Shown one piece after another: positions 24,658-45,626 of a stretch of 64,000 bases of DNA; within the stretch, counting starts at the first letter, position 1, and each line of letters starts with the position of its first letter. Source of the stretch: Candidatus Micrarchaeia archaeon. GTDB taxonomy: Archaea; Micrarchaeota; Micrarchaeia; CABMEP01. The notes below the pieces were generated by a model. That model ran no database searches, was not told the origin of the DNA, and saw nothing but the letters and a program-made list of their open reading frames with translations. The DNA lies in assembly GCA_038880755.1 (NCBI GenBank), contig JAVZRC010000001.1:8791-72790 (forward strand), read 5' to 3'. The position numbers and the translations under genes were made by a program.

Positions 24658-24936
24658 ATGGTGAAAGATGTTAAATTTAAGATTGAAAATATTGTAGCAT
24701 CTGCAAATTTAGGAATAGAATTAGATCTTTATTCTCTCGGAAGGAAAGTTCCAAATATCGAATACGAGCCCGAACAATTTCCAGGAGCAATTCTTAAACT
24801 TAGAGAACCAAAATCATCATTGCTTCTCTTTAAGAATGGAAAGATAATTTGTACTGGTTGTAAAACAGAAAAGGAAGTAAAATTAGCAATCAGAAATGCA
24901 ATGGCAATTCTTCAAAAAGCACAGAAGAAGAGATAA
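24658..24936 (+). CDS. single-repeat TATA-binding-protein-like protein (half-TBP)
   Basis: One complete TBP repeat: IENIVASANLGIELDLYSLGRKVPNIEYEPEQFPGAILKLREPKSSLLLFKNGKIICTGCKTEKEVKLAI. The ORF stops after about 93 aa and no second repeat lies downstream in frame. Confidence 0.5.
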   Translation: MVKDVKFKIENIVASANLGIELDLYSLGRKVPNIEYEPEQFPGAILKLREPKSSLLLFKNGKIICTGCKTEKEVKLAIRNAMAILQKAQKKR

Positions 24937-24996: not shown

Positions 24997-25854
24997 TTAA
25001 GGAAATCCTCTTAATCCATTTAGTCTCTGCTCAAAAATTTTTACATTCGTATTAAGTAGTTTAATTTCCCATTCTAATTTTTCATTAATAGATTTTATTA
25101 TTTTCTTTTTCTCTTTATTCGTTAAATCAAAATAAGATGTTATCTTATCCTTATTTTTGCTAAAATTATCATTGAGATATACAAATAGATTATGTAGTTT
25201 TTTATATTCTTCTAACGTTTTGTAAAATTTTTCCTTTCTATCTTTAATTTTTAATGAGTCTTCATATCGAGCTTTCCGATAATCGTTGTTTATTTCTCCT
25301 TCGCCACTAAATGAATCTCCAGAATAAAGTTCAATTCTTAATATAACATTATCATGGTATAACTCTAATAAATTAACATTATAAGGATCGTCTTTTAGGA
25401 GTTCTTTTATTTCTTTATCACTTTCTGTTAATATCGATTCTTTTTCTTCAACATCATTAATTATTGTCAAAGCATCTGCTTTTTTCATTTTCAGTTTTTC
25501 TAAAACAAAAAACACAGCTTTATTTTTAGTCTCTTCATATATCCTTTCCAATTCAGCAATACTTTCATCAATCTCTACTATTATCTCTGCAGAATTCTTT
25601 ATAAATGAATTGCCATAACTATAGTAATAACTTTTTATTTTCTTTAAATCTTCTTTACTACACACATTCTCCAAGCTTTTTTCTATTTTTTCATAATTTG
25701 TAAATGGATAAATACTATAAAATGCATTTGCTTTGGTCGGTGTCATAGATAAACCTAAAGCCAAAATCCCTTCTGCTAATAGTTTTCCAATCCGTTTTTT
25801 GAAATCAAGCTTTTTTTCAGGTTTTATCTCCTTAATTTTCTTTTCATCAGACAC
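24997..25854 (-). CDS. hypothetical N-terminally anchored/secreted protein
   Basis: Basic N-terminus then hydrophobic LLAEGILALGLSM. Remainder is K/E/N-rich and helical. Confidence 0.4.
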   Translation of the reverse strand: MSDEKKIKEIKPEKKLDFKKRIGKLLAEGILALGLSMTPTKANAFYSIYPFTNYEKIEKSLENVCSKEDLKKIKSYYYSYGNSFIKNSAEIIVEIDESIAELERIYEETKNKAVFFVLEKLKMKKADALTIINDVEEKESILTESDKEIKELLKDDPYNVNLLELYHDNVILRIELYSGDSFSGEGEINNDYRKARYEDSLKIKDRKEKFYKTLEEYKKLHNLFVYLNDNFSKNKDKITSYFDLTNKEKKKIIKSINEKLEWEIKLLNTNVKIFEQRLNGLRGFP

Positions 25855-25929
25855 ACATCCACCTCAGCTTATATATAATCATATAGCATAATTTATTTAT
25901 TAATTTTATGGATGTGTGATTTCTATAAA

Positions 25930-28900
25930 TTATTTATTTTTGACTCCAATCTCAGTAACTTTGCCTTTTGATACTCCACTATAAAAAGCTTCAATCCACT
26001 CTCTTTTTTCTTCTTCCATGTTCTTCTCATATTCTTTTTTGCCGGAATAAATGTAGATTATAGTTCCAGTTCCAAAAATCTTATTTTCGTTGAGTTTTTT
26101 CTTTAATACTTCTGGCTTAATTCCATCTTCACTAAAGTGTTTATATTCAATTTCGTCTATTAAACTTACGAATGGGTTATATCTGTTAGTTTGTATGTGT
26201 TTCTTTATCTCTTCTTCTGTTCTCTCTTTACCTGCTGCTATATTTGTATTCACATTATTAAGATGATTTAGGAGTTCATTGTACTTAGTTCTTTCTTCAT
26301 GCGAATGTACTTCTTTAGATTTATAGGAAGTTTCTAGCTTTCGTATTTCTTCGTGAATCTGGTTACTTAATGAATCTAATTTCCCAACTGTTGTAAATGT
26401 TTGATTATTGTCTTTGGGAATGTAGATTTCAGAATTGTATTTTTCGAAATCTTCTTTTACTTTACTTAAACCTTCCCGTAACTTGATTTCACTTTCATTT
26501 AATGTATATGGTGGTGATAAGAGTTGAAGTGCTTTATTTAGCTCTTTTTGTGCTTCATCAAGCTTGTAACGAGTGTATCCATTTCCGGAATTTATACTAC
26601 TGGTGGTTTCTGCAGCAGATTTTATTTCTGCAGCCTCAAATGTTTTTTTCATTATCATTGCGGAATCTACAGTTAAAGAACTTACAGGAGATAATGAAGG
26701 AGCATTTTTAGCAACTTCATATATCTCTTTCATTAATATCAGATTATCTCTTTCTTTTCTAATGAATTCTGTTCCTTTTATTACTCTTTCTAATTCAATT
26801 TTTGCAGACTCAATCTGGTTTTCTTTAGATTTAACTTCGTCATAACCTGGGGTACCAATTGTTGGATTTCTATATTTTATATAGAGTTCCTCTAGTTCTT
26901 TTTGAAGGTTTTTTATTTTGTTATTTATTATTTCTTCACCCTTTAAAACAGTAAATAATACTGTTTCTGGTGTAACATCTGTTTTCTCTCCATTAACTAT
27001 CTTTACGGCTCTTTCTAATCCTTTTGAGTTAAGTTTCTTTTCAAGATCTAATGTATCTATTATGTTTTTAGTGAGTTTCTCTTTATTCTCTGGCAATTCA
27101 TAATTCATATTAGAAAATGCAATTATTTTTTCATTTGGATTCGTTATCTTTCTTCCTTTTTCATCAGTCAACTCTAATTGGTCTAAAAATCTATGGATAG
27201 TTCCTATCTGTATGTCTTTTATAATATAATTAAATGCAGCTATTTTATTAGAATCGTCTTTAATTAATTCTAGGTTTTCTTTTAGAACAGTATTAATCTT
27301 ACTTGGATCACCACTTTCATATGCTTCATAAATTCGTTGAACATTAATCCCATAAGCATCAGCCAATTCTTTCACGTCTCTCAATTTGGACTTAAATTCA
27401 TCAACTCCATAGTTACTATAGTAGTCTTTCGCATTCATTTTTCTTGCTATTATCAAAGATTCTTTGTCAAAACCTATTAATGCTCCATTGCTACTAATTC
27501 TATTAAGTAGTCTTTCAGTATCTTCTCTAAGAATCCTTTCTAAGTTTCTTATTAATTTATTTGTATCTTCTACACTTAAATCAGATTTTTGTTTTATAAG
27601 TCTAGATTTTTGTTCATCACTTAGGTAAACAGATTTTAGTTGTTCATTGATTCTTTGAATTCTACCATCTAGATACGTTCTAATATCTTGTAATTCTGTA
27701 GGTTTTGCTCCTTTCTTTAACCCCTCTATTACATTTCTTAACATTTCTAAATTTGCAACTTCATCTTTAGCGATCGCATTCAATATTTTCATCTTTCCCT
27801 TCTCAGTCAATCCATACACATCTATATCTTCTTTTTGTAAACTAAAACCATATGTTGCTTTCACTTTATTATTTATCTCTTCTTGTTCTTCTTTGGTATA
27901 CATCTCTTTTGATGGTCTTCTGATCTCAGGTATTGAAGCATAAGATAAACTCCAAGGTCTTACACCCATTCTACCTAATGAGAGAAAGAACGTTTGTCTG
28001 AATAAATCTAATAATGATGAACTTGATACTTTATCTGATGCAGTAACAACTCTTATTTCACCAAAAACTCCTTTAACAACTCTTCTATTTCCACCCAATA
28101 CATCTTCCATTTCTTGTGTAGTTAGTTTTCCTTTTGCAGCTTGTTCCGCTTTCTTCAATTTTTCTAATTCTTCTTTATTCAATCTTCTGGAAGTAGTACT
28201 CATTAATACTTTTCCAGGTATAGAGGATATCTTTTGCACTATTCCAAAGGTTCCTTTTGCCTTTTTTTCTTCTTCAATTGAGGGAGTGAGGAACTTTCCA
28301 AGTTTGTATGCACCGGTTGAAGTAGCAGATTTTAATGCACTCTGGGCTGCACCTACAGCAGTACCTAATAATGTAGTTCTTTGCCTTGTAGTGACTCTAC
28401 CTCCAGAGATTCCTGGTGCTTTAAATGCAACTCTTGAAAAGTCAAATAAACCAAACGGATTCTTTCCAGATGCAAACATCGCAGCAACAAGAAGTGCAAA
28501 TATTATGAAAAGAGGAGCACAAGCAGTCAAACTTATTAACGGAAATACTCCAGGTACATATCTTTCTGTTTTCGCACTTCCCATAAATGGTTCTTTCGGT
28601 TTCGGTGTAAATGTAGCGGTTATTGAATATGAGATCTTTCTAGGATCTGTCGAATTTTCTAATAAGGGTGGTTGAGTGTATAGTGTAAAAGAAACACTCC
28701 CGTTTTCATTTGTATTTACTACAAAAGGTGCTGATTCATCTGAAAGGACAAACTCACCTGCTGCATTTTTTGTTACAAATTTACTTCCTATTACTAATTC
28801 TATAGTTATATTTTTGTTTGCAAGAGGTATTCTATTTTGTGTTTTCCTATCAATTGCATTAAGCTGTATATTGACATCAATTGTATTATCAGTTATACCT

Positions 28901-29046
28901 ACAGGTATATTTATTGGATGCCTTGAATGCTGAATTATAATTTCAGTTGGATTTTTATCTACAGGACAGATATTAACTGTGAAAACTAGAGGGATTGCAA
29001 AGAGGACAAGTATGATAATTAATCCAGTTACTTTCATTTGTATCAA
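25930..29046 (-). CDS. large (1038 aa) bitopic coiled-coil protein, signal peptide plus internal TM
   Basis: Signal peptide LIIILVLFAIPLVFTV, about 150-aa N-terminal domain, TM LISLTACAPLFIIFALLVAAMF, then about 850 aa of heptad-rich coiled coil. Confidence 0.6.
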   Translation of the reverse strand: MIQMKVTGLIIILVLFAIPLVFTVNICPVDKNPTEIIIQHSRHPINIPVGITDNTIDVNIQLNAIDRKTQNRIPLANKNITIELVIGSKFVTKNAAGEFVLSDESAPFVVNTNENGSVSFTLYTQPPLLENSTDPRKISYSITATFTPKPKEPFMGSAKTERYVPGVFPLISLTACAPLFIIFALLVAAMFASGKNPFGLFDFSRVAFKAPGISGGRVTTRQRTTLLGTAVGAAQSALKSATSTGAYKLGKFLTPSIEEEKKAKGTFGIVQKISSIPGKVLMSTTSRRLNKEELEKLKKAEQAAKGKLTTQEMEDVLGGNRRVVKGVFGEIRVVTASDKVSSSSLLDLFRQTFFLSLGRMGVRPWSLSYASIPEIRRPSKEMYTKEEQEEINNKVKATYGFSLQKEDIDVYGLTEKGKMKILNAIAKDEVANLEMLRNVIEGLKKGAKPTELQDIRTYLDGRIQRINEQLKSVYLSDEQKSRLIKQKSDLSVEDTNKLIRNLERILREDTERLLNRISSNGALIGFDKESLIIARKMNAKDYYSNYGVDEFKSKLRDVKELADAYGINVQRIYEAYESGDPSKINTVLKENLELIKDDSNKIAAFNYIIKDIQIGTIHRFLDQLELTDEKGRKITNPNEKIIAFSNMNYELPENKEKLTKNIIDTLDLEKKLNSKGLERAVKIVNGEKTDVTPETVLFTVLKGEEIINNKIKNLQKELEELYIKYRNPTIGTPGYDEVKSKENQIESAKIELERVIKGTEFIRKERDNLILMKEIYEVAKNAPSLSPVSSLTVDSAMIMKKTFEAAEIKSAAETTSSINSGNGYTRYKLDEAQKELNKALQLLSPPYTLNESEIKLREGLSKVKEDFEKYNSEIYIPKDNNQTFTTVGKLDSLSNQIHEEIRKLETSYKSKEVHSHEERTKYNELLNHLNNVNTNIAAGKERTEEEIKKHIQTNRYNPFVSLIDEIEYKHFSEDGIKPEVLKKKLNENKIFGTGTIIYIYSGKKEYEKNMEEEKREWIEAFYSGVSKGKVTEIGVKNK

Positions 29047-29094
29047 TACATTATATAAGTTTGAATTTTAAATCTTTTTATTAATATAATATCA

Positions 29095-30723
29095 ATGAAG
29101 AAATCTAATAAAATAGATATAAAATTTAATTATTCATTATTCATTCTGTTTAGCTTAATTATTTTTGCTTACGCCCAAACGCAGACACAAAGCCAACAGA
29201 CATGGCAGCAGTATGTTCCTAATTGGTTTCCTTTGTTTGCAATTGCAATTGGAATAGGATTTGGAATAACTGGACTTGCATTCATGTTAGCAAGAACCTT
29301 TCAACTTACACAGATGGAAACATGGGCCAGAGCAGAATTGTTTGAGGTAACTGGAAGTGCATTCTTAGTTTTAATAATACTAATAACATTGGGAGTAATT
29401 GACAATCTATTCATTGCGGCTGTAGGAATGAAGCCAACAGATCTTTCACTTGATTTCACAAATAGGATTTCAGAAAGATTGATGGATAGGTATATTGATT
29501 CGGTTAAGCTAGGTGCAGCAGTAGGTATGCTTTCAGGTCCACCAGTCCAATATTTAGGAGCAACATCTTCCACATCAGACAAAAGCGGTCAGACAAATCA
29601 AGGAAGCGGAACTGAAGTTACAGGAGGTAATGATGGTAAACCAGTGCAGTCTCCAGAGACACCAAATAGAATCTGGATGGTAGCCATTAAATCTTTTAAA
29701 ATGAGTTACCTAACATTTTATGCTGCAGATGTTTTTAATGGTCATTTTAACTTAGTTCAATCTATAGCTTTAACTTCTTTAGGAGTTTCTATCTTTTCCC
29801 ATATCTTATTGAATTTTATAAATAGTATTGCAATTCCATTTTTAATTCCATTTGGATTGTTTTTGAGCATATTTGCATTCACAAGGAAAATGGGAAGAAC
29901 CATAATTGCGTTTGGGGTGGGGCTCTACCTTTTTGTTCCGCTTTCCATAATAATTGCTCAAACAATGTATGATTCTGCATTTAAGCCGAATTCTTCCATC
30001 CCAGCGATAAGTAGACCTTCAGGAAATTCAAATATAGATCGTTTTACAACAGAGGTTTTTGCTTATGAAGCTTTAGATCTGCTTTCGCAATTAGCAATTG
30101 CCCAATATGCAATTTTAACCAATGCAGATACCTCACTACTGCCAAGTTGTGTAACCGGAGCAATTTCCCTTTCTTCAATATGTGGGATAGCTGCTCCAGC
30201 TTGTGCTCCAGTATTTACAATGATATGTTCTATGCTTGGTGGCATGTCTGACGTGGGAAGCGGGTCAGATAATATAAATACAATACAAAACGTTTTTTCT
30301 GTTTTGAGAGTTGCTTCTTTAAGTACGATTCTTGATGTACCAATCCCTGAACAATTAGGTTCAGCAAGTGCAACTATTGTAAGTCTAGCTGTAGCAGGTG
30401 GTGCATCCACATTTATATTCCATTTAATTCCATCAAATGTGATAACTATAAATTACATTATGCCAGTTCTGCAGCAATTAATGAACTTTGGGCAGTACGA
30501 AGTATCAGTTTTGACAGCTTCTCTATATGCAAACATGAATCAATACCTAGCAATCAAGTTAACAAACATCACGCTTGCATACACTCCATATGTAATGCAA
30601 GATGCAGTTCCTGCATTGCTTATTCCATTTATAATCATATTTACAGTTATAACTGGCATAAGGTCAATTTCTCCAGCTATTGGAGGGGAAGTTCAAATAC
30701 TGGGAGTTTCGGAACTTATATGA
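29095..30723 (+). CDS. paralogue 1 of 6: polytopic membrane protein of novel family (C-terminal GGEVQILGVSELI)
   Basis: Signal peptide, TM1-(ETWARAELFE)-TM2 hairpin, conserved helix FTRKMGRTIIAFGVGLYLFVPL and conserved C-terminal tail. Confidence 0.65.
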   Translation: MKKSNKIDIKFNYSLFILFSLIIFAYAQTQTQSQQTWQQYVPNWFPLFAIAIGIGFGITGLAFMLARTFQLTQMETWARAELFEVTGSAFLVLIILITLGVIDNLFIAAVGMKPTDLSLDFTNRISERLMDRYIDSVKLGAAVGMLSGPPVQYLGATSSTSDKSGQTNQGSGTEVTGGNDGKPVQSPETPNRIWMVAIKSFKMSYLTFYAADVFNGHFNLVQSIALTSLGVSIFSHILLNFINSIAIPFLIPFGLFLSIFAFTRKMGRTIIAFGVGLYLFVPLSIIIAQTMYDSAFKPNSSIPAISRPSGNSNIDRFTTEVFAYEALDLLSQLAIAQYAILTNADTSLLPSCVTGAISLSSICGIAAPACAPVFTMICSMLGGMSDVGSGSDNINTIQNVFSVLRVASLSTILDVPIPEQLGSASATIVSLAVAGGASTFIFHLIPSNVITINYIMPVLQQLMNFGQYEVSVLTASLYANMNQYLAIKLTNITLAYTPYVMQDAVPALLIPFIIIFTVITGIRSISPAIGGEVQILGVSELI

Positions 30724-30746
30724 AATAATACAAGGAGTGTTAGACC

Positions 30747-31619
30747 ATGGGATTTAGCGATATACCGACATGTTTAAGTACATGCACATTATCATCAGAG
30801 TATTCAAACTGGCTTCCTTTAGCTGGTATGATAATATTCATAGTTCTGCTTGGAATATCTATAGGCTTTATGATATCTAGATTTCTAAATAGACGCGACT
30901 GGGAGGCAATGATAAGATTAGAATTATACCATCTGTCAGTTGCAGTTATTTGGATCGGATTAATCGCAATAGTTGCCAATATTACATGTTCATTGTCATG
31001 TTCAATAACTAAAGATGAGAGTCCATTCACATCTTCAATTAATTACCTTAACACAATTAATTCAAAATTAAGCAGTATTGTAAATTCCTTGTATGAGAAA
31101 GCAAAGAATATAAGGATAGAAACAGCATATTATGACGCATTTGCCAATTTCATGTATTCGCCAAAGGCAGGATGTGATAATGTTGCATCAGTATATGAGA
31201 ATTTTTCATTCATGTTATCTCCATTCGTGGCCAGTCTTTTGATTCAGCAGTATGCTTTAATTTTTATAAGCCAGATAGCATTTACTTATCTACTTCCTAT
31301 TGGAATAATTCTTCGCTTGATTCCAGGATTTAAAGACGCATCTTCATATGTTATTGCTATCGCATTTGCATTTTATATCATCTTGCCTTTAACCTATGTT
31401 TTCGCGCAAAAGGCAACGGAAGGAATTTCGCTATCTTTGATTGATACAGATGCAAGTGATTGTGTATCTGCTAATGAAATTCAAACTATATTAACTGATG
31501 TTGGATTGCTTTTGCCACAGGCAGTATTCTTCCCTGCTTTAAGTAGCATTATTACAATTGGAGCAGCAAGAGCGCTTGCAGAGATATTTAAGTATGATTT
31601 CATTGAACTAAGGGGATAA
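30747..31619 (+). CDS. paralogue 2 of 6: polytopic membrane protein of novel family
   Basis: TM1-(RRDWEAMIRLEL)-TM2 hairpin. Motif LPIGIILRLIPGFKDASSYVIAIAFAFYIILPL. Confidence 0.6.
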   Translation: MGFSDIPTCLSTCTLSSEYSNWLPLAGMIIFIVLLGISIGFMISRFLNRRDWEAMIRLELYHLSVAVIWIGLIAIVANITCSLSCSITKDESPFTSSINYLNTINSKLSSIVNSLYEKAKNIRIETAYYDAFANFMYSPKAGCDNVASVYENFSFMLSPFVASLLIQQYALIFISQIAFTYLLPIGIILRLIPGFKDASSYVIAIAFAFYIILPLTYVFAQKATEGISLSLIDTDASDCVSANEIQTILTDVGLLLPQAVFFPALSSIITIGAARALAEIFKYDFIELRG

Positions 31620-31620
31620 A

Positions 31621-32808
31621 TTGGTATTAGACAAAATAAATAATAAAGTTAAAGGATACACTGTAAAGATAGCTATGGTAGTGTTTGTTCTAATTTTATG
31701 TATCTCATTTTCATTTGCAGCTCAAGATGTTTTCGGTTTCCATACAGATGTTGATTGGATTCTAATTGCATATTTAGTTATACTTATTGTTGCACTACTA
31801 TTGGGAATCGCATTTATGATATCTAAAGTATTTGCAATGCATGAGTTAGAGGCATGGACAAGAGAAGAGGCAATGAATCTTATTATATCAATTGCAATTC
31901 TCGTTTTATTTACTGCATTTGTTGGTGTAGCTGAACAAATAGCAAATTCTTTATCTAAAGACGTTCTTTCTTCAAGTGTTTCTGCAAGTGCTTCAGGAAA
32001 CATAAGTTACTGGCAATACATACCAAATGAGGGCAGGTGGAAAACGATAGAAACTTCCAACCCATCCTGTGAATATCCATGTTACATATATATGGCAAGA
32101 GGCTTCCTAGGTTCTTTGTATGAAAAATATGGAGAATCTTTAAAGAGTATTGCCCAATATTATTTCGTTTCAGTGTTCTATTCCACTCAATCTATAGGGT
32201 CTGGCGTTGACTTTACCTGGGGCAAATTTAAATTTGAATTTGGAATTGGATTCCCGTTGAATGCAGGTTTAACTATATATAACAATATACTAGCAACTGT
32301 AGTAAGCGAGTATTTGAAAATAATTACAGCTATAAAAATGCAGGAAATTGCTTTAGTTTATCTTTCATCTCTTGCAGGCATGTTCTTCATACTTGGAATA
32401 ATCTCCCGTTCAGTTTGGTTTTTAAGAAAATTCGGCGGTCTGTTTGTAGCTGCAGGCATAGGTTTATATTTAATATTTCCAATGGTTTATGTTTTAAGTT
32501 GGTACACGATTGACAGATCTGCAATAATATTTGAAGTGGATCTTCCACAACCAGTATCTTCCGATGATCCACTTTCATTCTTTACTGGCGGGATTGGAGG
32601 TTTAGGAAATGTTGATTTGTTATTTACAAGATATAATGATAATGGATCTGTAATTTCAATTGGAATGTTAGATTCGTTAGGAAGATCATATATTCCAATA
32701 ATAGTAGTGCCAATCCTTGCAATTTTTACCACTCTTGGATTTATAAGGCATTTCTCACCAATGATAGGTGGAGATCCTGAAATAGCAGGTCTTACAAGAA
32801 TCATTTAA
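31621..32808 (+). CDS. paralogue 3 of 6: polytopic membrane protein of novel family (C-terminal IGGDPEIAGLTRII)
   Basis: Motif ISRSVWFLRKFGGLFVAAGIGLYLIFPMVYVL. The track start is a TTG. An ATG at 31675 gives a clean signal peptide. Confidence 0.6.
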   Translation: MVLDKINNKVKGYTVKIAMVVFVLILCISFSFAAQDVFGFHTDVDWILIAYLVILIVALLLGIAFMISKVFAMHELEAWTREEAMNLIISIAILVLFTAFVGVAEQIANSLSKDVLSSSVSASASGNISYWQYIPNEGRWKTIETSNPSCEYPCYIYMARGFLGSLYEKYGESLKSIAQYYFVSVFYSTQSIGSGVDFTWGKFKFEFGIGFPLNAGLTIYNNILATVVSEYLKIITAIKMQEIALVYLSSLAGMFFILGIISRSVWFLRKFGGLFVAAGIGLYLIFPMVYVLSWYTIDRSAIIFEVDLPQPVSSDDPLSFFTGGIGGLGNVDLLFTRYNDNGSVISIGMLDSLGRSYIPIIVVPILAIFTTLGFIRHFSPMIGGDPEIAGLTRII

Positions 32809-32822
32809 GCATATGAAAGTAA

Positions 32823-35104: not shown

Positions 35105-35118
35105 GATACGGTGAAATT

Positions 35119-36366: not shown

Positions 36367-36388
36367 ACTGCGATGTTGGAGTGATAAT

Positions 36389-37165: not shown

Positions 37166-37250
37166 AATCTTGTTTCAATAAATAATAAATTAAACTTAAA
37201 TTCTTTATGTATAAATTAAATCAAGAAGAAAAGATGAAGAAGGTGAATAG

Positions 37251-40200
37251 ATGAATAAATCTGAAATGAAGAAAGAAAGTAAAATCAAGTCTTCATCTTT
37301 TTCAAATATGATGGTTTTTCTGATCATCTTTTCTTTGATATTTATTCTTGTCTCTGGTTGTATTGAATTAAAGCCAAGAGAAGGGATAAGTACTACAGTT
37401 CCAATTACGGTAACGAAAGGAAGCGATGTATGTGCCGGTTATAATGAATCCACATGCGGCGCTTTCTTGAAGGAAAAGAGAACTGCAATTTCTGATTATA
37501 TTTGTAAAGGACCAATCGGCCCTTCTTATTCAAAGGTGGACGAAGTAACTTATTCTCTTTCAGCTGAAAAAGGTTGGAGTTGTGAGGAAACAAAAACATA
37601 TCTAGTTTTAGCAGGAAATAACTATACAATGTCAGGTTCAGGCCATATGGGGAATCCACATGGTGGTAGCATAACATTACAAGATTCAAGAAATGTAGTA
37701 TCACCAATATCTTATGGAATGAATAATCTAACTTTGAAATGTGATGTAGGCGTATTTGTTAGTGTTTCAAAAGGTAAATATCAGGGGGGTTCATTTACCT
37801 TGAGATTTGATGGTTCATCTGACATCTTATCTCCAGGAGACCGTTTTGACGGACAATACTCATTTTTCGTACTACCATTAACTTTAACTCCAGAAAATAA
37901 CAAATTAATTGGTAATCTTAGTTTTTCAGGTACGTGGGTAGTTACCGGAAAAGAATACGGTAGTTGGCCAAACAAAAAACACAAATCAAGCATGGATGTT
38001 TCTTACTCTATTTCTTGTACTCCCTTTGCAAGCTACAATGTTAATTGGAGATGTAAAAATGCATATACCTCAGAATCATATGATTTTGTAAATTGCAGCT
38101 ATGATGAATTTTCTACATTCCAGGGTGGAAGGACATTCCTTGATAACAATACTCCATTCAGCAAGCTTAGCAACTATATTCAATCATATTATGGAACTTA
38201 CTCGTACAATCCAATTACTGAAGAAACAAAGCCAGCTGGAAAAATTCAAGTTCCATTCTTTATGTTAGGCCAAGGTCCATCCTTCCAGGATTATGAAGAG
38301 GCAAAGAAACTATGTGTACCATGGAAAGAAACCGTAGTGAACATCTCACTTGGAAATACGACATTTGATCCTCCATTTATGACAATCCTCTCAGGTTTAG
38401 AGCTCTGTATCGATAATAAAGACAATAAGAGACATGATATAACGATAATCAATCTTCAGGATCAAAGTATAGTAAGACAATACATTCTTCAGCCAACGCA
38501 ATCTGCATGTTATATACCATACGAAGGCTTTTATCACATAAAAGATTCAAATGGAGACTATGCTTATTTATCAGTACTAAGCGCAAAAGATACTACTCAG
38601 ATTTATATAGGAAATAACATAGTTCCGAATTATACAGTGGTTAATGCAGATGGATTTGTTAATTTTAGCCTAATTGAAAGAAAAGAGCATAACTTGAGTA
38701 TGACAAGTGTGAATAGATTTGATGATTATAGCTATGATAATAATTTTACTCTCAATCTTTCAAATCCGGTTGAAACAATAAGAGCGCCACAAACAGGAGA
38801 GTATAGGATTAATGATATCACAACAGATAAAACTGGTTATTTATTCGTTCAGTCTCCGCTTCAGAGATTCTTGTTTAAGAGAGATGGAACAATTGATCCA
38901 GGATATGAAATATACAGACCGCTTGGAGATTTGATTTGTTTTAGAAGCGAAACTGAAGGTTTAAGCATTTCAATTTCAAGATACACAGAAACTGAAAATG
39001 GATATGAATGGATATGGCTGACTAATGAAACATTGTCTACAAATTCATATTGCTGTATTCAAGGTGCGTTACCTGGCAAGTATCAAGGAATTACCTCAGA
39101 TGGAAGAGTTGCAAATTGGACGATAGGAAATGGAAAGCCTTCCGCAACAGTTTCTATTCAGCCGATTGGTTTTGAACCTGAAGAAGTAGAAAGTCCGCCA
39201 GGAACAAAGATATGTTGGATTAATCCATCAGCAATCTCAAGAAATGTTATAACAAAATCATCATCAGGAAAGACATTCTTCTCAGGCCAAATTCCACCAT
39301 TCTCAGATAATGTTTGTTGGCCAACTATGAACAAGACAGATTCATATGTAACTACATTTGTACCTAATTTAGATGTGAGGAACATTGTGAATATTAAAGA
39401 GGTTGATTCAAGAAACATCCAAATACTCTCAGGTGGCGCAGGCTTTGATACTATCTCATTAGTTGTAAAGCCTGGCTCTCAAATATGTTGGATTAATAAT
39501 GATAATAAGAATCATACATTAAAAGATGAGAGTGGAAACTACATACTCTTAGCTCCATCGCAAACAAACTGTATAGATAAGTCTACTATGCAGGAAGGAA
39601 ATATTTATACGCGCCAGCTGGATGGAAAGGAGATTTATTCAGATGTTGGAGTTATAGATGGTAAAGGTGCAATCCTGTCTTCAAGAGGTCCTATTCCATT
39701 TTCACTATTTGTAAATCCACCAAATGTTAATATGACTCAATCAGGAGAATTGTATATCACCTCTCCTTCGTATTTCAAGATTATAAATAAACAGAGTGTT
39801 CCATCTGAGTTGTATGAGATTTCCTATATTACTTTATTAGCTAATTCAACTGGATTGGCAGATATAGTGAAAACCGAAAGTGAAACTATTATAATTAATT
39901 CTCCGGTTAAGAGCTATACAAAGCTATTGCTTTATGTGGAAAATACTGATGATAAAAACCACACTATAAGAGTGGAATCAAACGGAGATGAAATCAATAT
40001 TCTACCTAATTCATTTTATTTATTTGAAATTAGTCAAAGTACAGTATTAACTGATTTAACTGTTAAAGAAAATTTGACTAGAAGTGGAACTACAAATCAA
40101 ACTATAATAGATGCATTGTCACAGATCCCAATAAAGATATTGGGTCCTCCAGAGATAAAATTAAGTAAATCAGGTTCTAATGGAGATTCATTAACATTGT

Positions 40201-43200
40201 CTGCTCCTATTGAACCTTATACTTCAATACTTTATGAAAATAATACAAACAAGACAATTGTAATCACTTTTGCAGATACAAAGGAATTCATACTAGAGAA
40301 CCCATTGAACAATCAAACATTAGACCTTCCAACTCAGGTTATTCATGGAGATTTATCCTCTCAAATTCTTTATGATATGAGAAAGTATGCGGATGAGGGA
40401 GCAATGTCATTGCTTATTCCTTCATTCCATAATGTAACAGTAAAGATACATTCCTCTGTTTTCTCTCCATCTGAAGCATTAATACCTGCAGGAAGCACAA
40501 TTACATTTACTAATAAGGATGTAATAGACCATACAATTGATTTAATTAAAAATGAAAGCGATATCATCTCTTCAAGATCGTTTACCCTTCTACCATTACA
40601 ATCAAATTCAACTTCAGATACACCAAAGAATACAACATTCACGTTCTATGATCAGCTTTCCAATATGAAAGGAAACATTACAACAGTTGCTTATGATGCA
40701 AATATTGGAATAATATCAACACCGATTTATCCAGAATCTGGAATGGTTGCAGTTGGTGGACCTGTTAAATTCAATAACTATGATCCTGATTCAGATTATA
40801 AGATTGAGATTAAACTTACAGATGAACTAAACGCTGATTACACATATATCTTAAATCTTCCTAAATATACAAATGGGATTCCAGGAGTTGCAACATGGAT
40901 TCCAGATAAGGCTGGAAATGCCACTTATATAGTTAGAAATAATACAATTGTTGTTGGCACTGGTGAAATAGTTGTCAAGAATTCAATAATTAATATTTCT
41001 ATTAGAAATGGGGAGTTTGAAACAAAATCAATTGCGGTTGATCATGATAGCAAGGTGTGCTTTAATCCAGACTCACCAAGAAACATCTCAATTACTAATT
41101 TAGATACCGGTGAAAAGATAGCTGAAAGAACTATCTATCCATTAGGTGTTCAAGCAACAGATTCAGGTAGTGTTTGTAAAAGAATTTATAACTGTTCTGT
41201 AAAGCAACAGACTGGAGATTATGGATGCATAGGAATAGTGAATGAATCAGATCCTTCTACATATTGTTCTTATTATTTAATTAATCCATCAATAGCATGT
41301 AAATTAGATAATAATATTTCATGTGTTGTTAAAGACCAGTATTCAAATGATTTAGAGTGTACAACTGACTATTCAAAAGATACGCAACCCGCAGTGCCAG
41401 GCATTCAACCACAGTGTTTATTCCAAGCAAGATTAGATGGTGGTGCATGCAACGGTGGTTCAGTAATAAAGAATTCTTCCTTAGCTTCAATAATTAATTG
41501 CTCAGTTTCAACTACAGGTCTTCTCCAGTTTAACTATTTTTCAGGTAAGGAAAAGACAGATGTATCAAATTTATTATGTAACGTCCAAAAATCAGGTAAT
41601 ATTATAACATGTAGCCCAACAGGTTTATATCCAGATATAGGTTGTATTAATAATTCAATCAATGATCTATATTGCTATTATACACCTTCACCATTAACAT
41701 CCGCAGAAAAGTCTAATCCGTATACATTAACTGATAATCGTTTCTGTGCAGTAACAACTGCTCAAAGAACTGAAAGATATTATACAACATATGCATGTGA
41801 TATAGGGTACGATGGTAAGTGTACATGTCCAACTAATAAAATGTGTGGTGCCTTGCCATGTGATGGAAGCAATGTTCTTGCAAGTATGTATTATGATCGT
41901 TATCAAAGCAGTTCTATGTTTGGAAGGAAAAGTTATAATTGTTCGAATGGAAAGTTAGTTAATGTTCTCTTGAAAGAAGGGACATATACATTTAATTTCT
42001 CAGGATTAGATAATCCATATTTTTCAATATATCTTAAACCTAATTTTGGATTTAAGGCATGCAAATGCTATGCTGCCAACCAAAGGACAGTCACATACGC
42101 TAATTCGTGTAGTGTTAAAACTGGGGGAAGTTCAATCACTCCATTTCCAAGCAATTGTACTTTACAGTCTGAGAAATGTGTGTTCTCTTCTCCATCAGTA
42201 TTTTTATGCAGCAATGAAGAAAACTGTCCATGTAAATTCGGATGCGGAAAGAAGATCAACTATTCAACACTAGGAAACATAAATTGTGTTTCAACCCCAG
42301 GGGGTTGTAATGTAATATCAAATTATAATGCTGATAATGGTGATTACTGTAAATATGCGTATGCTCAAACATGCACACCTAAACAAGGATATGAAGATAA
42401 AGTATCATGCAAACTTGATGGAATATCATGTTTGATATCAGAAGGAAAGAAAATAAAAGACGACGGTTCGTATTGCAGTTTGAATTTATTTTCATGTGAA
42501 CCAGCTTACTCGGGCGTTGATTGCAGTTTTGATGCATCAACACAATCATGTAAGGTTGGTTCTATCGAGCAATTCTGTTTCACACCAGCTTCAACTTATG
42601 TTGTTGAGGATGTAGATACTGGAAATATTATGATAGTTGAAGGTTATGACAGATATACGCCATTAGAGATAGATATTCAAAAATCTGTGTTCACTCCTTC
42701 CTTTGTTGCATCATCTCCACTGAGCGAAGTATGTTTCCAAAGCCTCGATGGAAAAATGCACAGAGTTTCAGTTCCAGAGGCAGTAAAGAGTGATGGTTTT
42801 ATTGATGTTTATTCAGATAGGCAAACATGTCTTAATTTCCCATACAATACAGAGCCATGGACTGTAAGGTTGCAGGACAAGCCAGATGTTGCAGCAGGCA
42901 TTAAATCAATAAAGCAGGATATTGAAGTAGTTGTCAAGTCACAGATGTTTGATCCTTCTGATCTGGTTCTCAGACCTAATACATCTATTACATTTATTAA
43001 TACAGATGCAGAATCACATCAACTTAACAAAGCAATACCATCTACAAATTTTGTTAAACTTATTTTACAAAATAGCATTTTAACAAGCGATTCATTCTTT
43101 TACAATATATTAAAAACAGAGTGGATAGATACAATCGAATGTAAGAATGATTCAGACTGTCCAGAAGGTTCATTCTGCGATGTAGAAAAAAGATGCCACG

Positions 43201-45626
43201 CTATTAAATTCTGCATACGAGATGATGAGTGTCCATCTCCATCAATTTGCCATAACTATAAATGTATTCTTACAAAACAGTGTCAAACTGATTTAGAATG
43301 TGGAGTTAATAGTAAATGTATTGATGATGGAACTGGAATCAAGAAATGTATTGCATTAGATATTCAATGTTCAAATTCATTCGATTGCTACTCTTCAGAT
43401 CCAAATTCGATTTGTATTAACAACAAATGCACACGTTTAGTAAATTGTACTAATTCCTCAGATTGTCCATCTGGCTTTGTCTGTTCATCTCAGTCATGCA
43501 CCATGATTGAAAGTTGTACAAATAATAGCGAGTGCCCACTGAATTCAGTATGTCATCAAGGTAAATGTGCTACGCCAATAGTCAATAATTGTAGCTTAGA
43601 CAGTGATTGCCCGATTGGAATGTACTGTACTATTGTAGATGAAACAGAAGATGGCGAAAAAATAAGGGCATGTATTTCAAGCCCATGCATTTCAAATTCG
43701 GATTGCAGCGAAGAGAGCAATACAGCATGCATGACCAACTTCATTACCGATGAAAATAATTGTACGCTTTATAATCCATCTTATGCAGAACTGTTGTGTA
43801 CAAGCGATGTAGACTGTCTTGAGGGCGGTTGTCTCAATGGAAGATGTGTTATTTCAAAGAATTGTTCACGAGATTTTGATTGTGGCGTGATAAATGGTAT
43901 TCAATCAGTATGTGAATCTTCTGTTTGTAAGATCCCAGTTAAATGTTCTGTTTTAGCAGATTGTAGATCTGGAGAAATATGTCAGGATGGATTCTGCAGA
44001 ATACTCCGTGATAAGATTTGCACTACAGATTCAGAATGTAATGCTGATGAAATTTGTCAAGAAATGAAGTGTATAAAGAAGCAGAATTGTTCTTCCACTA
44101 TCAGTTGTAATTCACTGCAAAGCGGTGCAGCATGCACAAATGCTTCTTCATCTTACCCTGCATTCTGTCAATCATCTACAAATTGTACAAGCGATGCATA
44201 CTGCGGATCGAACCAGTATTGTGATTTAGGAATCAAGCAGTGTATTACCTATCCAAAGACAACTTGTGATTCGCCACTATATGGATCAGATGTTAGTCAG
44301 GTTAATGTTTCATTCAAGCTTCCGTCATCTACCTATAAAGCATATTTGATTTATTCTTTCAATGATAATGGGAATATATTCTTAAATGGACAAACTTTAT
44401 TACCAACAACTAAATTTAGATGCCAGTATTCGACTGGGTCTGGTGTTAATTATATTGATAACTATTCTCAAACTCAGCAATGGAAGATACCTTTAGGTTT
44501 GCTTAAGTTAGGGAATGAAGAAAATAATATGTCAATTACAACATGCAGTTGTTCTGGTCAAAAAGGATTCAACATTTCAATACTTTATTATTATGTTTCT
44601 CCAGAAGGAATCAAACAAGAGTCAATTATAATAGATCCAAATTCAAAAATTCAGATCTTTTCACCTCAACAATCTGAAGAACTAATATATATTGATAACA
44701 AGACAAAGAACGTGCTTCCAATCTCTGTGAAGTCCATAATAAATTCAACAGGAGGTATAGACTGTTCAGCAGACCTCTCTTCAATGGCTCTGGCAGTTGC
44801 AAGCTATGAGAGATTAGATTATGCAACTCAGGCTTGTGACTCAGGAAAGCAGATTGAATGTGCTTCATATAATCCATATGGTCCCGCTACGGTTACATTC
44901 TTTGCCTCAGAATCTGGATTGAATCTTTCAAATGAATCTGAAAGACTGTGTGCATTCCAGCAGCTTGCATCTGTCAAGAATATATGTCCAAATTGTACAA
45001 CTGTTCTAAATGTCGGGGATGTAAATATCACACAGCTCAAGGATATTTTAAATTCAGCAAATTCAACCCAAATACTTGGCAAAAATGCAATTGAATTTGT
45101 AGATGTAATAGGTTATGACGAATTCCTTAACAATTATCCATCCTGTAGCTTCGAGGACATAATGAATTCAATAGTAAACAAATCAAAACTTGGTTTATAC
45201 AATTACACAAAACCATCAATAATAATGAGGTTTGGATTAAAGGATGGTGCATCTAATACAAATTCAGCATGCAACTGGACAGATGAATCTATTGTAACAG
45301 CATATCAAGATTTCTATGGAATATGGATTCCAATTCTTGCAGGTTCAGGCGTGCTTGGAACAGCCCAATACTGCTTGACAGACCCATGCCCGTCATTTGA
45401 TTTCTATGGTCTTCTTACCTCAGGAAAGACAAACAAGCCATGGACAGATGTATGGTTCAGGGAAGGATGCGGAAGATATTATTACGCAGCTGAAGGGTTA
45501 TCATTTACAACATTCTCAATGAAGGAAACAAACTATTCAATGTGCGATCCATCAAAGATGCTTGCCCTGCTTCAGACTGCTCAATGTGCAGTAGGCAAAT
45601 ATACATTAAAATCAGGAGCAAGTTAA
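37251..45626 (+). CDS. giant (2791 aa) cysteine-rich surface protein, putative lipoprotein, with about 15 tandem EGF-like CxxDSDCPxGxxC modules
   Basis: An uninterrupted 8.4-kb ORF. N-terminal TM ending in the lipobox-like LVSGC. Tandem Cys modules at nt 43138-44270 (e.g. ECKNDSDCPEGSFCDVEKRC). No C-terminal TM. Confidence 0.7.
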   Translation: MNKSEMKKESKIKSSSFSNMMVFLIIFSLIFILVSGCIELKPREGISTTVPITVTKGSDVCAGYNESTCGAFLKEKRTAISDYICKGPIGPSYSKVDEVTYSLSAEKGWSCEETKTYLVLAGNNYTMSGSGHMGNPHGGSITLQDSRNVVSPISYGMNNLTLKCDVGVFVSVSKGKYQGGSFTLRFDGSSDILSPGDRFDGQYSFFVLPLTLTPENNKLIGNLSFSGTWVVTGKEYGSWPNKKHKSSMDVSYSISCTPFASYNVNWRCKNAYTSESYDFVNCSYDEFSTFQGGRTFLDNNTPFSKLSNYIQSYYGTYSYNPITEETKPAGKIQVPFFMLGQGPSFQDYEEAKKLCVPWKETVVNISLGNTTFDPPFMTILSGLELCIDNKDNKRHDITIINLQDQSIVRQYILQPTQSACYIPYEGFYHIKDSNGDYAYLSVLSAKDTTQIYIGNNIVPNYTVVNADGFVNFSLIERKEHNLSMTSVNRFDDYSYDNNFTLNLSNPVETIRAPQTGEYRINDITTDKTGYLFVQSPLQRFLFKRDGTIDPGYEIYRPLGDLICFRSETEGLSISISRYTETENGYEWIWLTNETLSTNSYCCIQGALPGKYQGITSDGRVANWTIGNGKPSATVSIQPIGFEPEEVESPPGTKICWINPSAISRNVITKSSSGKTFFSGQIPPFSDNVCWPTMNKTDSYVTTFVPNLDVRNIVNIKEVDSRNIQILSGGAGFDTISLVVKPGSQICWINNDNKNHTLKDESGNYILLAPSQTNCIDKSTMQEGNIYTRQLDGKEIYSDVGVIDGKGAILSSRGPIPFSLFVNPPNVNMTQSGELYITSPSYFKIINKQSVPSELYEISYITLLANSTGLADIVKTESETIIINSPVKSYTKLLLYVENTDDKNHTIRVESNGDEINILPNSFYLFEISQSTVLTDLTVKENLTRSGTTNQTIIDALSQIPIKILGPPEIKLSKSGSNGDSLTLSAPIEPYTSILYENNTNKTIVITFADTKEFILENPLNNQTLDLPTQVIHGDLSSQILYDMRKYADEGAMSLLIPSFHNVTVKIHSSVFSPSEALIPAGSTITFTNKDVIDHTIDLIKNESDIISSRSFTLLPLQSNSTSDTPKNTTFTFYDQLSNMKGNITTVAYDANIGIISTPIYPESGMVAVGGPVKFNNYDPDSDYKIEIKLTDELNADYTYILNLPKYTNGIPGVATWIPDKAGNATYIVRNNTIVVGTGEIVVKNSIINISIRNGEFETKSIAVDHDSKVCFNPDSPRNISITNLDTGEKIAERTIYPLGVQATDSGSVCKRIYNCSVKQQTGDYGCIGIVNESDPSTYCSYYLINPSIACKLDNNISCVVKDQYSNDLECTTDYSKDTQPAVPGIQPQCLFQARLDGGACNGGSVIKNSSLASIINCSVSTTGLLQFNYFSGKEKTDVSNLLCNVQKSGNIITCSPTGLYPDIGCINNSINDLYCYYTPSPLTSAEKSNPYTLTDNRFCAVTTAQRTERYYTTYACDIGYDGKCTCPTNKMCGALPCDGSNVLASMYYDRYQSSSMFGRKSYNCSNGKLVNVLLKEGTYTFNFSGLDNPYFSIYLKPNFGFKACKCYAANQRTVTYANSCSVKTGGSSITPFPSNCTLQSEKCVFSSPSVFLCSNEENCPCKFGCGKKINYSTLGNINCVSTPGGCNVISNYNADNGDYCKYAYAQTCTPKQGYEDKVSCKLDGISCLISEGKKIKDDGSYCSLNLFSCEPAYSGVDCSFDASTQSCKVGSIEQFCFTPASTYVVEDVDTGNIMIVEGYDRYTPLEIDIQKSVFTPSFVASSPLSEVCFQSLDGKMHRVSVPEAVKSDGFIDVYSDRQTCLNFPYNTEPWTVRLQDKPDVAAGIKSIKQDIEVVVKSQMFDPSDLVLRPNTSITFINTDAESHQLNKAIPSTNFVKLILQNSILTSDSFFYNILKTEWIDTIECKNDSDCPEGSFCDVEKRCHAIKFCIRDDECPSPSICHNYKCILTKQCQTDLECGVNSKCIDDGTGIKKCIALDIQCSNSFDCYSSDPNSICINNKCTRLVNCTNSSDCPSGFVCSSQSCTMIESCTNNSECPLNSVCHQGKCATPIVNNCSLDSDCPIGMYCTIVDETEDGEKIRACISSPCISNSDCSEESNTACMTNFITDENNCTLYNPSYAELLCTSDVDCLEGGCLNGRCVISKNCSRDFDCGVINGIQSVCESSVCKIPVKCSVLADCRSGEICQDGFCRILRDKICTTDSECNADEICQEMKCIKKQNCSSTISCNSLQSGAACTNASSSYPAFCQSSTNCTSDAYCGSNQYCDLGIKQCITYPKTTCDSPLYGSDVSQVNVSFKLPSSTYKAYLIYSFNDNGNIFLNGQTLLPTTKFRCQYSTGSGVNYIDNYSQTQQWKIPLGLLKLGNEENNMSITTCSCSGQKGFNISILYYYVSPEGIKQESIIIDPNSKIQIFSPQQSEELIYIDNKTKNVLPISVKSIINSTGGIDCSADLSSMALAVASYERLDYATQACDSGKQIECASYNPYGPATVTFFASESGLNLSNESERLCAFQQLASVKNICPNCTTVLNVGDVNITQLKDILNSANSTQILGKNAIEFVDVIGYDEFLNNYPSCSFEDIMNSIVNKSKLGLYNYTKPSIIMRFGLKDGASNTNSACNWTDESIVTAYQDFYGIWIPILAGSGVLGTAQYCLTDPCPSFDFYGLLTSGKTNKPWTDVWFREGCGRYYYAAEGLSFTTFSMKETNYSMCDPSKMLALLQTAQCAVGKYTLKSGAS

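Follow-up and report, generated by a model that had tools for sequence, protein, structure and literature searches.

A class-wide gene cluster of Micrarchaeia with six polytopic paralogues and a giant putative lipoprotein, a candidate for a cell-surface or host-contact apparatus

DPANN archaea depend on physical contact with a host. Which proteins build their cytoplasmic bridges, docking barrels and attachment organelles is explicitly unknown, as for the 21-nm barrel seen in ARM-1 envelopes (PMC11329633) and the YN1 attachment organelle (PMC11420986), and the same is stated for the anchoring of the micrarchaeal S-layers, which are six-fold symmetric (PMC11329633, PMC8975820). Does a 20-kb block of genes for secreted and membrane proteins in a micrarchaeon encode part of such a structure, and do its genes belong together at all? 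The block lies in the window, the whole 64-kb stretch of DNA that was analysed, and a sequence-only reading had proposed it as a novel surface apparatus for host attachment or a cell-cell conduit. No description of this cluster was found in a literature search.

Layout of the locus and conservation of its gene order

The ten ORFs of the block and their features were found where that reading had placed them, and the source is indeed a DPANN archaeon (Candidatus Micrarchaeia MAGs). Two genes run on the minus strand, g2 (25930-29046, 1038 aa) and g1 (24997-25854, 285 aa). A 48-nt intergenic region (29047-29094), A/T-rich and with TATA-like boxes on reading the sequence, separates them from eight genes on the plus strand; it is probably a bidirectional promoter, serving g2-g1 one way and p1-p6-g9-g10 the other. 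The six paralogues are p1 (29095-30723, 542 aa), p2 (30747-31619, 290 aa), p3 (31621-32808, 395 aa), p4 (32823-33971, 382 aa from the GTG at 32823; 371 aa in public annotations), p5 (33968-35104, 378 aa, overlapping p4 by 4 nt) and p6 (35119-36366, 415 aa). Taking the ATG at 35119 as the start of p6, the gaps between them are 23, 1, 14, -4 and 14 nt, as claimed. The genes g9 (36389-37165, 258 aa) and g10 (37251-45626, 2791 aa) follow on the same strand. Beyond the block as first delimited lies g11 (45671-47053, minus strand), which encodes a 460-aa polytopic protein.

The predicted flanks were also present: L21e and a single-repeat TBP upstream, and 5S rRNA (47094-47209, minus strand) followed by cdc6 downstream. 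The cluster is a single-copy, chromosomal locus with housekeeping genes around it. Some genes look split in sister MAGs, and phase variation or pseudogenes were considered; in p1 of L002, the single junction examined, the gap consists of ~98 N of scaffold filler, and the idea was rejected.

No ATPase, pilin, S-layer protein or glycosyltransferase gave a Pfam or NCBIfam match in the block, in agreement with the first reading. When every protein of the block was scanned against Pfam, NCBIfam and PHROG, only noise came up, besides weak cupredoxin and Cys-repeat matches in g10. A Walker A motif was found neither in the 11 cluster proteins of the window nor in three ~1,300-aa lipoproteins, and the only ATPase Pfam matches in the 64-kb window were housekeeping P-loop proteins (FtsY/SRP54, cdc6). 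Likewise, no Pfam-annotated ATPase lies around the cluster in loci L007, L009, L010, L027 and L028.

The order of p1 to p6 is identical in seven distant loci. One-to-one orthology was checked by BLAST in L007, L009 and L010; the p1 orthologue stands first in L007 and L009, the p2 orthologue second in L007, L009 and L010, and in L027 the first of six genes matches p1 in length. A Cys-rich lipoprotein of 1,300-3,200 aa is encoded downstream of p6 wherever the contig extends that far. Five of the seven loci carry a g2 homologue, recognized by sequence in L007, L010, L013 and L014 and by position and architecture in L027. The cluster proteins of distant loci are only 25-45% identical, yet they occur in the same order. 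A GTDB genome scan returned only four loci because its search patterns were narrow.

Genes for unrelated membrane and secreted proteins could have come to lie together by chance. Nothing but the missing functional annotation speaks for this account, and a lack of synteny in related genomes had been set in advance as the outcome that would support it. The synteny refutes it: gene content and order are kept between loci with proteins so diverged, and the gaps are -4 to 23 nt. Its probability is negligible, and the module that the block forms is real and deeply conserved.

These comparisons indicate that (i) the cluster is deeply conserved across the class and looks like a core gene set; and (ii) the ten-gene block holds as a module but not in its limits, the conserved core leaving out g1 and taking in g11. 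About eight envelope proteins, inherited together and conserved class-wide, are thereby defined as a concrete set that is open to direct testing.

Proteins encoded by the cluster

The six polytopic proteins are true paralogues, as had been supposed, with mutual identities of 19-24% and common motifs, LLPxGxxLRxFxxTRxxGG...P and the C-terminal tail LGxExDxxxLxRxI. Their family comprises 3,132 representatives at 50% clustering, to which a word-index search with a 105-sequence family alignment added few. Named members all belong to Micrarchaeia, from at least two orders, and a scan of viral contigs for p6 found none. Neither Pfam, NCBIfam and PHROG nor the PDB sequences contained a match to the family: no Pfam entry recurred among 105 members scanned, a PDB sequence search with the family profile gave no match, and neither did Foldseek against the PDB. 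Whatever its function, the cluster defines a large protein family, with >3,000 clusters at 50% identity, and an architecture of a machine, six fixed paralogues with a giant lipoprotein and a bitopic coiled-coil protein and no motor, which are absent from Pfam, NCBIfam and the PDB.

Predicted topology and AF2 models (p2, pLDDT 82 and pTM 0.74; p5, pLDDT 79.6 and pTM 0.71) suggest that each paralogue has a leader and then five membrane helices in an N-out/C-in orientation. In a conservation map with p5, the reference sequence for the family analyses, the cytoplasmic loop (2.7 bits) and the C-tail (2.3 bits) scored highest and the ecto-loops (0.5-1.0 bits) lowest. The paralogues differ in their elaborations. 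The largest, p1, has extra hydrophobic insertions in its second ecto-loop, and p2 is minimal, lacking the N-terminal signal segment. Orthologues of p3 elsewhere carry large extra regions, reaching 1494-1683 aa in total; in the 1494-aa orthologue the extra part is N-terminal and contains Ig-like domains, and ecto-side fusions to Ig-like/CARDB domains are seen among family members. The best conserved is p6, with 40-45% identity to distant orthologues and a Cys-rich N-terminal ecto-segment.

The 2791-aa g10 product answers to its first description as a Cys-rich lipoprotein. It has 136 Cys (4.9%) and 71 N-X-S/T sequons, and after a hydrophobic leader a lipobox-like LVSGC at residues 33-37, as expected of an archaeal lipoprotein, so that we regard it as a putative lipoprotein. 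The lipobox is followed by a conserved motif, CIxLKP, also present in the giants; the lipobox equivalents in orthologues and ~1,300-aa variants are FSAC, FGC, FAC, MSGC, LSGC and LAGC. Further along, a regex search picked out at least five cupredoxin-like repeats, and two of these gave weak Pfam matches as well. Knot-like Cys repeats lie at ~1960-2340, and the C-terminal domain, which is conserved, spans ~2331-2791. The protein is 29-35% identical to the giants in L007, L009, L027 and L028; in further look-ups for orthologues of the C-terminal domain the contigs ended before it. Pfam and NCBIfam gave weak cupredoxin-like, DUF7107 and Dickkopf-like Cys motifs only, with no protease, nuclease or murein hydrolase domain in Pfam, and neither the full sequence nor the profile of the C-terminal domain matched the PDB. 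There is no C-terminal TM and no PGF-CTERM.

As had been read, g9 encodes a single-pass membrane protein. The TM (28-46) is N-terminal, and the ectodomain carries 4 Cys and 9 sequons. A search with g9 returned three close relatives only. The sequence is fast-evolving, but the architecture is conserved: the genes in this position in L007, L009, L027 and L028 each encode one N-terminal TM and exactly 4 Cys.

The 1038-aa g2 protein had been described as a bitopic coiled-coil protein forming an extended stalk. The first part stands: a signal/TM segment (9-27) is followed by a glycosylatable ectodomain of ~140 aa, a TM (170-188) and a conserved juxtamembrane motif, GKNPFGLFDFS. An external stalk is not supported, since the C-terminal ~810 aa, a coiled coil that is K/E-rich, Cys-free and sequon-poor and that follows a positively charged juxtamembrane segment, is on these grounds predicted to be most likely cytoplasmic. 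Residues 1-258 are conserved in L007, the TM and juxtamembrane motif in L010 too, and jackhmmer also detected homologues in L013 and L014; no match was found among PDB sequences. In strain L012, residues 1-225 are ~96% identical and the sequence from 226 to the end ~30%, with a sharp breakpoint.

Downstream of g2 and in the same transcription direction, g1 encodes a K/E-rich helical protein with 1 Cys and no TM called by hydropathy. It had been considered anchored; the supposed anchor is no more than a weak N-terminal segment resembling a signal peptide, and it is conserved only within the species. No g1 homologue was found in distant clusters, and g1 is just 35% identical in strain L012, though the p-genes of that strain are 91-98% identical. 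Strain comparison indicates that g1 is species-specific and hypervariable, and that it forms with the g2 coiled coil a strain-hypervariable cassette.

The g11 protein has at least six N-terminal TMs, no Cys and a C-terminal soluble domain of ~200 aa. Neither it nor its profile matched Pfam or the PDB. Its homologue in L007 is 30% identical over the full length and adjoins the g2 homologue, and a 460-aa gene occupies the g11 position in L027 (a match by position and length only). Synteny indicates that g11 belongs to the cluster.

A proposed assembly and its alternatives

We consider that the locus as a whole is best explained as a lineage-specific cell-envelope module of Micrarchaeia, an ATPase-less hetero-oligomeric platform that holds a giant surface lipoprotein (probability ~0.4). 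In the cytoplasmic membrane, one copy each of p1 to p6 would come together as a hetero-oligomeric platform, probably a ring, which we infer only from the conserved copy number and order. The conserved face of the platform, made of the loop LRxFxxTRxxGG and the tail LGxExDxxxLxRxI, would be cytoplasmic. The variable ecto-loops, predicted to be short helical bundles with a Gly/Pro-marked hairpin at the tip, would touch the membrane-proximal part of the g10 protein, which would be lipid-anchored, disulfide-rich and heavily N-glycosylated. Bitopic g2 may link the platform to a cytoplasmic scaffold, a long coiled coil that the C-terminus of g2 would form with g1 and that diversifies rapidly. Having no motor, the whole would serve as a surface structure, static or gated, and most likely as the base of the host-facing attachment or docking apparatus of the symbiont, possibly a passive conduit, and not an active secretion system.

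The cluster is a good candidate for a cell-surface or host-contact apparatus. Lifestyle, surface location and variability point to host attachment or a conduit, and general envelope or S-layer anchoring fits about equally. Three observations count against a host-contact platform: the housekeeping neighbours and core-like gene set suit a general envelope role equally well, the ecto-side helical bundles, at ~5 nm, are too short to span to the host alone, and the hypervariable part of g2 is the one predicted to be cytoplasmic.

The Cys-rich lipoprotein might instead be the Micrarchaeia S-layer or sheath protein, or a major part of it, with p1-p6 and g2 as anchors or organisers that have no specific host-contact role. 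A single-copy chromosomal cluster found class-wide among housekeeping genes is in keeping with such a general scaffold, the lipoprotein is large, glycosylation-rich and disulfide-rich as archaeal surface proteins are, and six paralogues would suit a pseudo-sixfold anchor of the six-fold micrarchaeal S-layer (PMC11329633, PMC8975820). However, the block has no S-layer signature in Pfam or NCBIfam, S-layer subunits rarely reach 2,800-3,200 aa, six extra polytopic anchors would be superfluous for a giant with its own putative lipid anchor, and L009 has at least two giant paralogues around one cluster. We hold this general role to be possible, though somewhat unlikely.

A bolder form of the host-contact platform makes a pseudo-sixfold p1-p6 ring the base of a Micrarchaeia host-contact structure, for example the ARM-1 21-nm barrel docking host nanotubes, with g10 as outer collar or adhesin, the variable g2/g1 coiled coils as cytoplasmic receiver and the whole as an ATPase-independent intercellular conduit. 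This is an unlikely proposal; if true, it would be an intercellular conduit of a kind undescribed in any domain.

In every variant, p1-p6 are strictly coupled to a lipoprotein that is very large and rich in Cys and sequons. This could also reflect biogenesis, the paralogues being a translocon, insertase or quality-control complex that exports, lipidates, folds (through disulfides) or glycosylates the giant, with g11 as an accessory membrane enzyme. A polytopic N-terminus with a soluble domain, as in g11, is also seen in membrane glycosyltransferases (GT-C enzymes). We judge this explanation distinctly unlikely: no homology to Sec, YidC, Oxa1, DsbB, OST or GT-C families was found, no energy source is encoded in the cluster, and a chaperone role hardly justifies six non-redundant paralogues. 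Moreover, folding, disulfide formation and glycosylation all take place outside, and it is the cytoplasmic face that is conserved.

Comparison with known systems

The paralogues had no confident match to any characterised transporter or secretion family by Pfam, HMM, hhalign or Foldseek searches, as the proposal of a novel apparatus had anticipated. VirB6 has five helices, N-out/C-in, and a large ecto-loop, and the topology predicted for the paralogues matches this. They could be VirB6/CedA-type channel subunits of a degenerate T4SS or Ced/Ted-like translocon, in tandem as in Rickettsiales. The ATPase that powers it, of VirB4/HerA type, would be encoded elsewhere, and its role would be to exchange DNA or protein with the host. 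Some obligate symbionts have VirB6 paralogues in tandem, with giant extensions (PMC7648143), CedA and TedA are archaeal VirB6-like proteins (PMC9905601), and the sole hhalign match, to a 10-sequence VirB6 alignment, superposes the most conserved motif of each family. That match has a probability of 0.8% (E 0.067, 21 columns), and against TrwI the value is 0.1%. TrbL (PF04610) was matched neither by the six paralogues at E<=1 nor by 105 family members, the family HMM found no VirB6 among PDB sequences, and a VirB6 fold match of one paralogue model (7o3v chain F) was not reproduced with a second paralogue. One TrwI relative was found in a metagenome scan.

The partners of a T4SS were also sought. 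No VirB4/CedB/TedB-type, VirD4 or HerA ATPase is encoded in the window or Pfam-annotated in the five related loci named above, nor did the window or the related loci inspected give a match to VirB2-like pilins or the VirB8 family. No small hydrophobic hairpin ORF of VirB2/CedA1/TedC type was seen in a non-exhaustive look at the gaps (-4 to 85 nt), and there was no pilin family match. Compared with the VirB6/TrbL T4SS (TrwI of R388, PDB 7o3v), the cluster lacks a VirB4 ATPase, pilin, VirB8 and coupling protein nearby and, unlike a mobile element, belongs to the chromosomal core. A T4SS-like translocon is very improbable.

Type IV pili and archaella are no closer, T2SSE and T2SSF (PilC/FlaJ) having no match in the block; a sub-threshold Peptidase_A24 match at 18005-18811, 6 kb upstream, is the only pilus-related signal in the window. 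A permease domain with a cognate ABC ATPase, as in ABC-type permeases (FtsX/MacB, ABC-2), was not found, nor were other characterised transporters. The matches to generic helical membrane bundles and components of ClyA-type alpha-pore-forming toxins (MAPEG enzymes, XaxA, AhlC, YaxB, Hbl-B, MakE) extend over less than half of the protein and are such as any long helical bundle gives; there is no sequence similarity, and the toxins are soluble before insertion.

In mycobacterial Mce systems, six paralogues, MceA-F, form a heterohexameric envelope-spanning assembly, and the ATPase MceG is encoded elsewhere. The cluster is alike in its six tandem paralogues in fixed order, presumably one subunit each per assembly, in the accessory membrane proteins alongside, in the lack of an ATPase in the operon and in belonging to a lipid-scavenging organism. 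The likeness is in logic only: MlaD and MlaE had no match in the block, so that it has no MCE domain and no YrbE/MlaE permease, and its paralogues are five-helix polytopic proteins, unlike the single-pass Mce proteins with their beta-barrel and needle.

The SlaA/SlaB S-layer of Sulfolobales likewise combines a large glycosylated surface protein with membrane-anchored coiled-coil partners, in a six-fold lattice context (PMC11329633). In contrast, the cluster has no sequence relationship to it, no S-layer domain (SlaA/SlaB, S_layer_N/C, PGF-CTERM) being found in the block proteins; its coiled coil is predicted on the cytoplasmic side, its giant has its own putative lipid anchor, and its six polytopic paralogues are without counterpart. 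Giant surface proteins occur in other DPANN/CPR symbionts, such as SPEARE of Nanohaloarchaeota and the large lytic-transglycosylase proteins of Woesearchaeota (PMC8204110). Like these, g10 would be a very large extracellular multidomain protein of an ultrasmall episymbiont with a presumed part in host contact; unlike them, it is conserved class-wide rather than strain-specific and is genetically locked to a six-paralogue module.

Gene order and conservation of the cluster

The block at positions 24997–45626 is bordered on both sides by housekeeping genes: Pus10, LysRS, KsgA, Yip1, DUF655, Rpb4, L21e and a single-repeat TBP upstream, and 5S rRNA (47094–47209, minus strand), cdc6, DUF763, S6e and eIF2-gamma downstream. 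Its ORF map was identical to that of the sequence-only reading, which had proposed a novel membrane or cell-surface apparatus of DPANN origin; the origin was right, the exact matches being Candidatus Micrarchaeia MAGs (GCA_038873695.1 and sister assemblies). The minus strand carries g1 (24997–25854, a 285-aa helical protein) and g2 (25930–29046, a 1038-aa bitopic coiled-coil protein). After a 48-nt A/T-rich divergent spacer, the plus strand carries six paralogous polytopic membrane protein genes, p1–p6 (29095–36366), spaced as first read (23, 1, 14, −4 and 14 nt), then g9 (36389–37165, a 258-aa single-TM protein) and g10 (37251–45626, a 2791-aa Cys-rich putative lipoprotein, the giant). A gene for a 460-aa polytopic protein, g11 (45671–47053, minus), starts 41 nt downstream of the 5S rRNA gene on the same strand. 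The 151-aa ORF overlapping that rRNA gene (47020–47475, minus) is almost certainly spurious.

The layout was retained in distant relatives at 25–45% identity, which refutes a random juxtaposition and bears out the block as a real unit. On a 565-kb contig (L007), a g11-like gene and an opposite-strand g2-like gene accompany p1–p6, a ~246-aa single-TM gene and a 2,925-aa giant; L027 matches this layout as judged by position and length. In L028, whose contig begins within the array, five tandem paralogue-size genes precede a 224-aa gene, after which a giant begins. A second architecture (L010, L013, L014) has p6 followed directly by a ~1,300-aa Cys-rich lipoprotein and then a g2 homologue. In L009, a 616-aa Cys-rich gene (at least 71 Cys) occupies the g2 position, followed by p1–p6, a 235-aa gene and a giant, and a second giant (3,234 aa) lies upstream (L009:1–7125); thus, the module can expand its set of surface proteins.

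BLAST revealed strict one-to-one orthology to p1–p6, in unchanged order, in L007, L009 and L010; the duplications therefore predate the split of these lineages, and every copy was retained. The genes at the g9 position are beyond BLAST recognition, yet all encode one N-terminal TM and exactly four Cys. In every giant orthologue the N-terminus is a hydrophobic leader, followed by a Cys-terminated lipobox and the motif CIxLKP. The synteny defines the module core as p1–p6, a Cys-rich lipoprotein and g2, with g9 and g11 as frequent accessories and g1 as a species-specific gene.

In sister MAG annotations (L002–L004, L034, L035), p1, g2, p6 and g10 look split. At the one junction inspected, the p1 split (L002:6271–6368), ∼98 N of scaffold filler were found instead of a frameshift or phase variation.

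The paralogues and the other cluster proteins

The six paralogues are alignable across the whole core (19–24% identity) and share the motifs LLPxGxxLRxFxxTRxxGG...P and, in the C-terminal tail, LGxExDxxxLxRxI. Hydropathy and AlphaFold2 models of p5 (pLDDT 79.6, pTM 0.71) and p2 (pLDDT 82.0, pTM 0.74) predict a cleavable or anchoring leader (missing in p2) and then a short N-tail that lies outside and bears Cys. The chain is predicted to cross the membrane in five long helices, to have two external loops and to end in a cytoplasmic C-tail; a small hairpin with conserved Gly/Pro caps the first loop, which is a helical bundle. Among 105 diverse members, conservation peaked in the helix 3–4 cytoplasmic loop (2.7 bits per column), helix 4 (2.3) and the C-tail (2.3), and was lowest in the external segments (0.5–1.0 bits). 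In some relatives Ig-like or CARDB domains are fused to the core, N-terminally where mapped, and the largest such proteins reach about 1,700 aa.

When 1.84 billion cluster representatives were searched with a profile, 3,132 family proteins passed a cut-off of E ≤ 1e-3, of which 2,540 also passed E ≤ 1e-10. All members with a source name are labelled "hypothetical", and all named source organisms are Micrarchaeia/Micrarchaeota, including Ca. Burarchaeum (order Burarchaeales). The paralogues matched no Pfam, NCBIfam or PHROG model, no Pfam family recurred among the 105 members scanned, and the family HMM found nothing among PDB sequences.

The g2 protein begins with a signal/TM segment, a ∼140-aa ectodomain (three sequons), a TM (170–188) and the conserved juxtamembrane motif GKNPFGLFDFS; the segment following the TM is strongly positive, and the last ∼810 residues contain 24% Lys+Glu, zero Cys and just two sequons. 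The positive-inside rule, together with the contrast to the exported proteins of the cluster, which are rich in Cys and sequons, leads us to infer a cytoplasmic location for the long coiled coil. The external coiled-coil stalk originally envisaged is therefore unlikely.

When compared with the sister strain L012, identity was 91–98% for the p-genes, 90% for g10 and 96% for g11. In g2 it was ∼96% to residue ∼225 and then only ∼30% to the end, and g1 was 35% identical. The g2 C-terminus and g1 thus make up a sharply bounded cassette, hypervariable or recombined and located in the predicted cytoplasmic part; it spans 25930–28370 (g2 residues ∼226–1038) and g1 (24997–25854), with its counterpart at L012:38–3260.

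The giant contains 136 Cys and 71 N-X-S/T sequons, at least five cupredoxin-like repeats (xFxNxDxxxH, by regex; two also weak Pfam matches), a block of knot-like Cys repeats (residues ∼1960–2340) and a C-terminal domain (∼2331–2791). This domain has no relative in PDB or Pfam; its identity to the C-terminus of the second L009 giant is 39%, and a weak relationship links it to part of the ∼1,300-aa lipoproteins. That the cluster is a dedicated biogenesis system for the giant lipoprotein is improbable in our estimate.

Other genes of the window

A full-length bacterial-type RelA/SpoT homologue (54272–56230, minus; 652 aa; HD_4, RelA_SpoT, TGS and ACT domains) may be a lateral acquisition, because long RSH enzymes are unusual in archaea. 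The TBP gene (24658–24936, plus) encodes just 92 aa with one TBP repeat, a product also called in at least six sister contigs; canonical archaeal TBP has two repeats and about 180 aa. A 111-nt tRNA (7774–7884, minus) was detected by Rfam (59 bits) and absent from the ARAGORN output, which makes an intron in it probable; 6.5 kb away lies a gene for a tRNA-splicing endonuclease (747–1268, minus). The sole pilus-related signal in the window was a sub-threshold Peptidase_A24 (prepilin peptidase) match (23.4 bits vs. a cut-off of 26.5) in a 268-aa membrane protein (18005–18811, minus). Outside the block, the plus-strand ORFs 1775–3175, 53346–54083, 59778–60584, 60615–62606 and 47468–48130 (220–663 aa) had no significant Pfam match.

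Proposed assembly and comparison with known systems

Six non-redundant paralogues in fixed order suggest that p1–p6 would contribute one subunit each to the same hetero-oligomer. Conservation of the cytoplasmic loop and tail suggests intracellular contacts that are conserved as well, either among the subunits or to the juxtamembrane region of g2. The outer face would consist of the ecto-loops, which are variable and prone to insertions, and of the giant, which would be lipid-anchored, rich in disulfides and glycosylated. We propose, with a probability of roughly 40%, that the cluster builds the base of an apparatus that faces the host and serves attachment or docking. A general S-layer or envelope anchor is a less likely reading, which we still take seriously. 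The components of DPANN contact structures, and the way in which the micrarchaeal S-layer is anchored, are stated as unknown in the field (PMC11329633, PMC11420986, PMC8975820). It has also been noted there that a membrane-bound or extracellular location without predicted function is common among lineage-specific families of DPANN (PMC8204110).

For VirB6/TrbL, the homology singled out for checking by the sequence-only reading, no confident relationship was found: when a VirB6 alignment built from R388 TrwI plus nine plasmid homologues was compared with the family profile, hhalign reported a probability of 0.8% (E 0.067) over 21 columns. These columns are the most conserved motif of both VirB6 and the paralogue family; the match is suggestive, yet expected by chance between information-rich columns. 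Neither VirB4, VirD4, HerA or FtsK ATPases nor T2SSE/T2SSF, pilin, VirB8, MCE, FtsX/ABC or S-layer families were detected anywhere in the 64-kb window, the block included, or in the related loci, and P-loop matches in the window were solely to housekeeping proteins (e.g., FtsY/SRP54, cdc6). These comparisons therefore give no support for membership in T4SS/Ced/Ted, T4P/archaellum, ABC/MacB or Mce systems, and a degenerate T4SS-like translocon seems very improbable. Since no NTPase was found in the same regions, the proposed attachment base would most simply be a static or gated envelope structure.

The resemblance of the cluster to the VirB6 arrays of obligate symbionts (PMC7648143) and to archaeal CedA/TedA (PMC9905601) is a low-probability lead. 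No description of the cluster was found in the literature, and we regard it as a categorically new kind of module with a proposed function.
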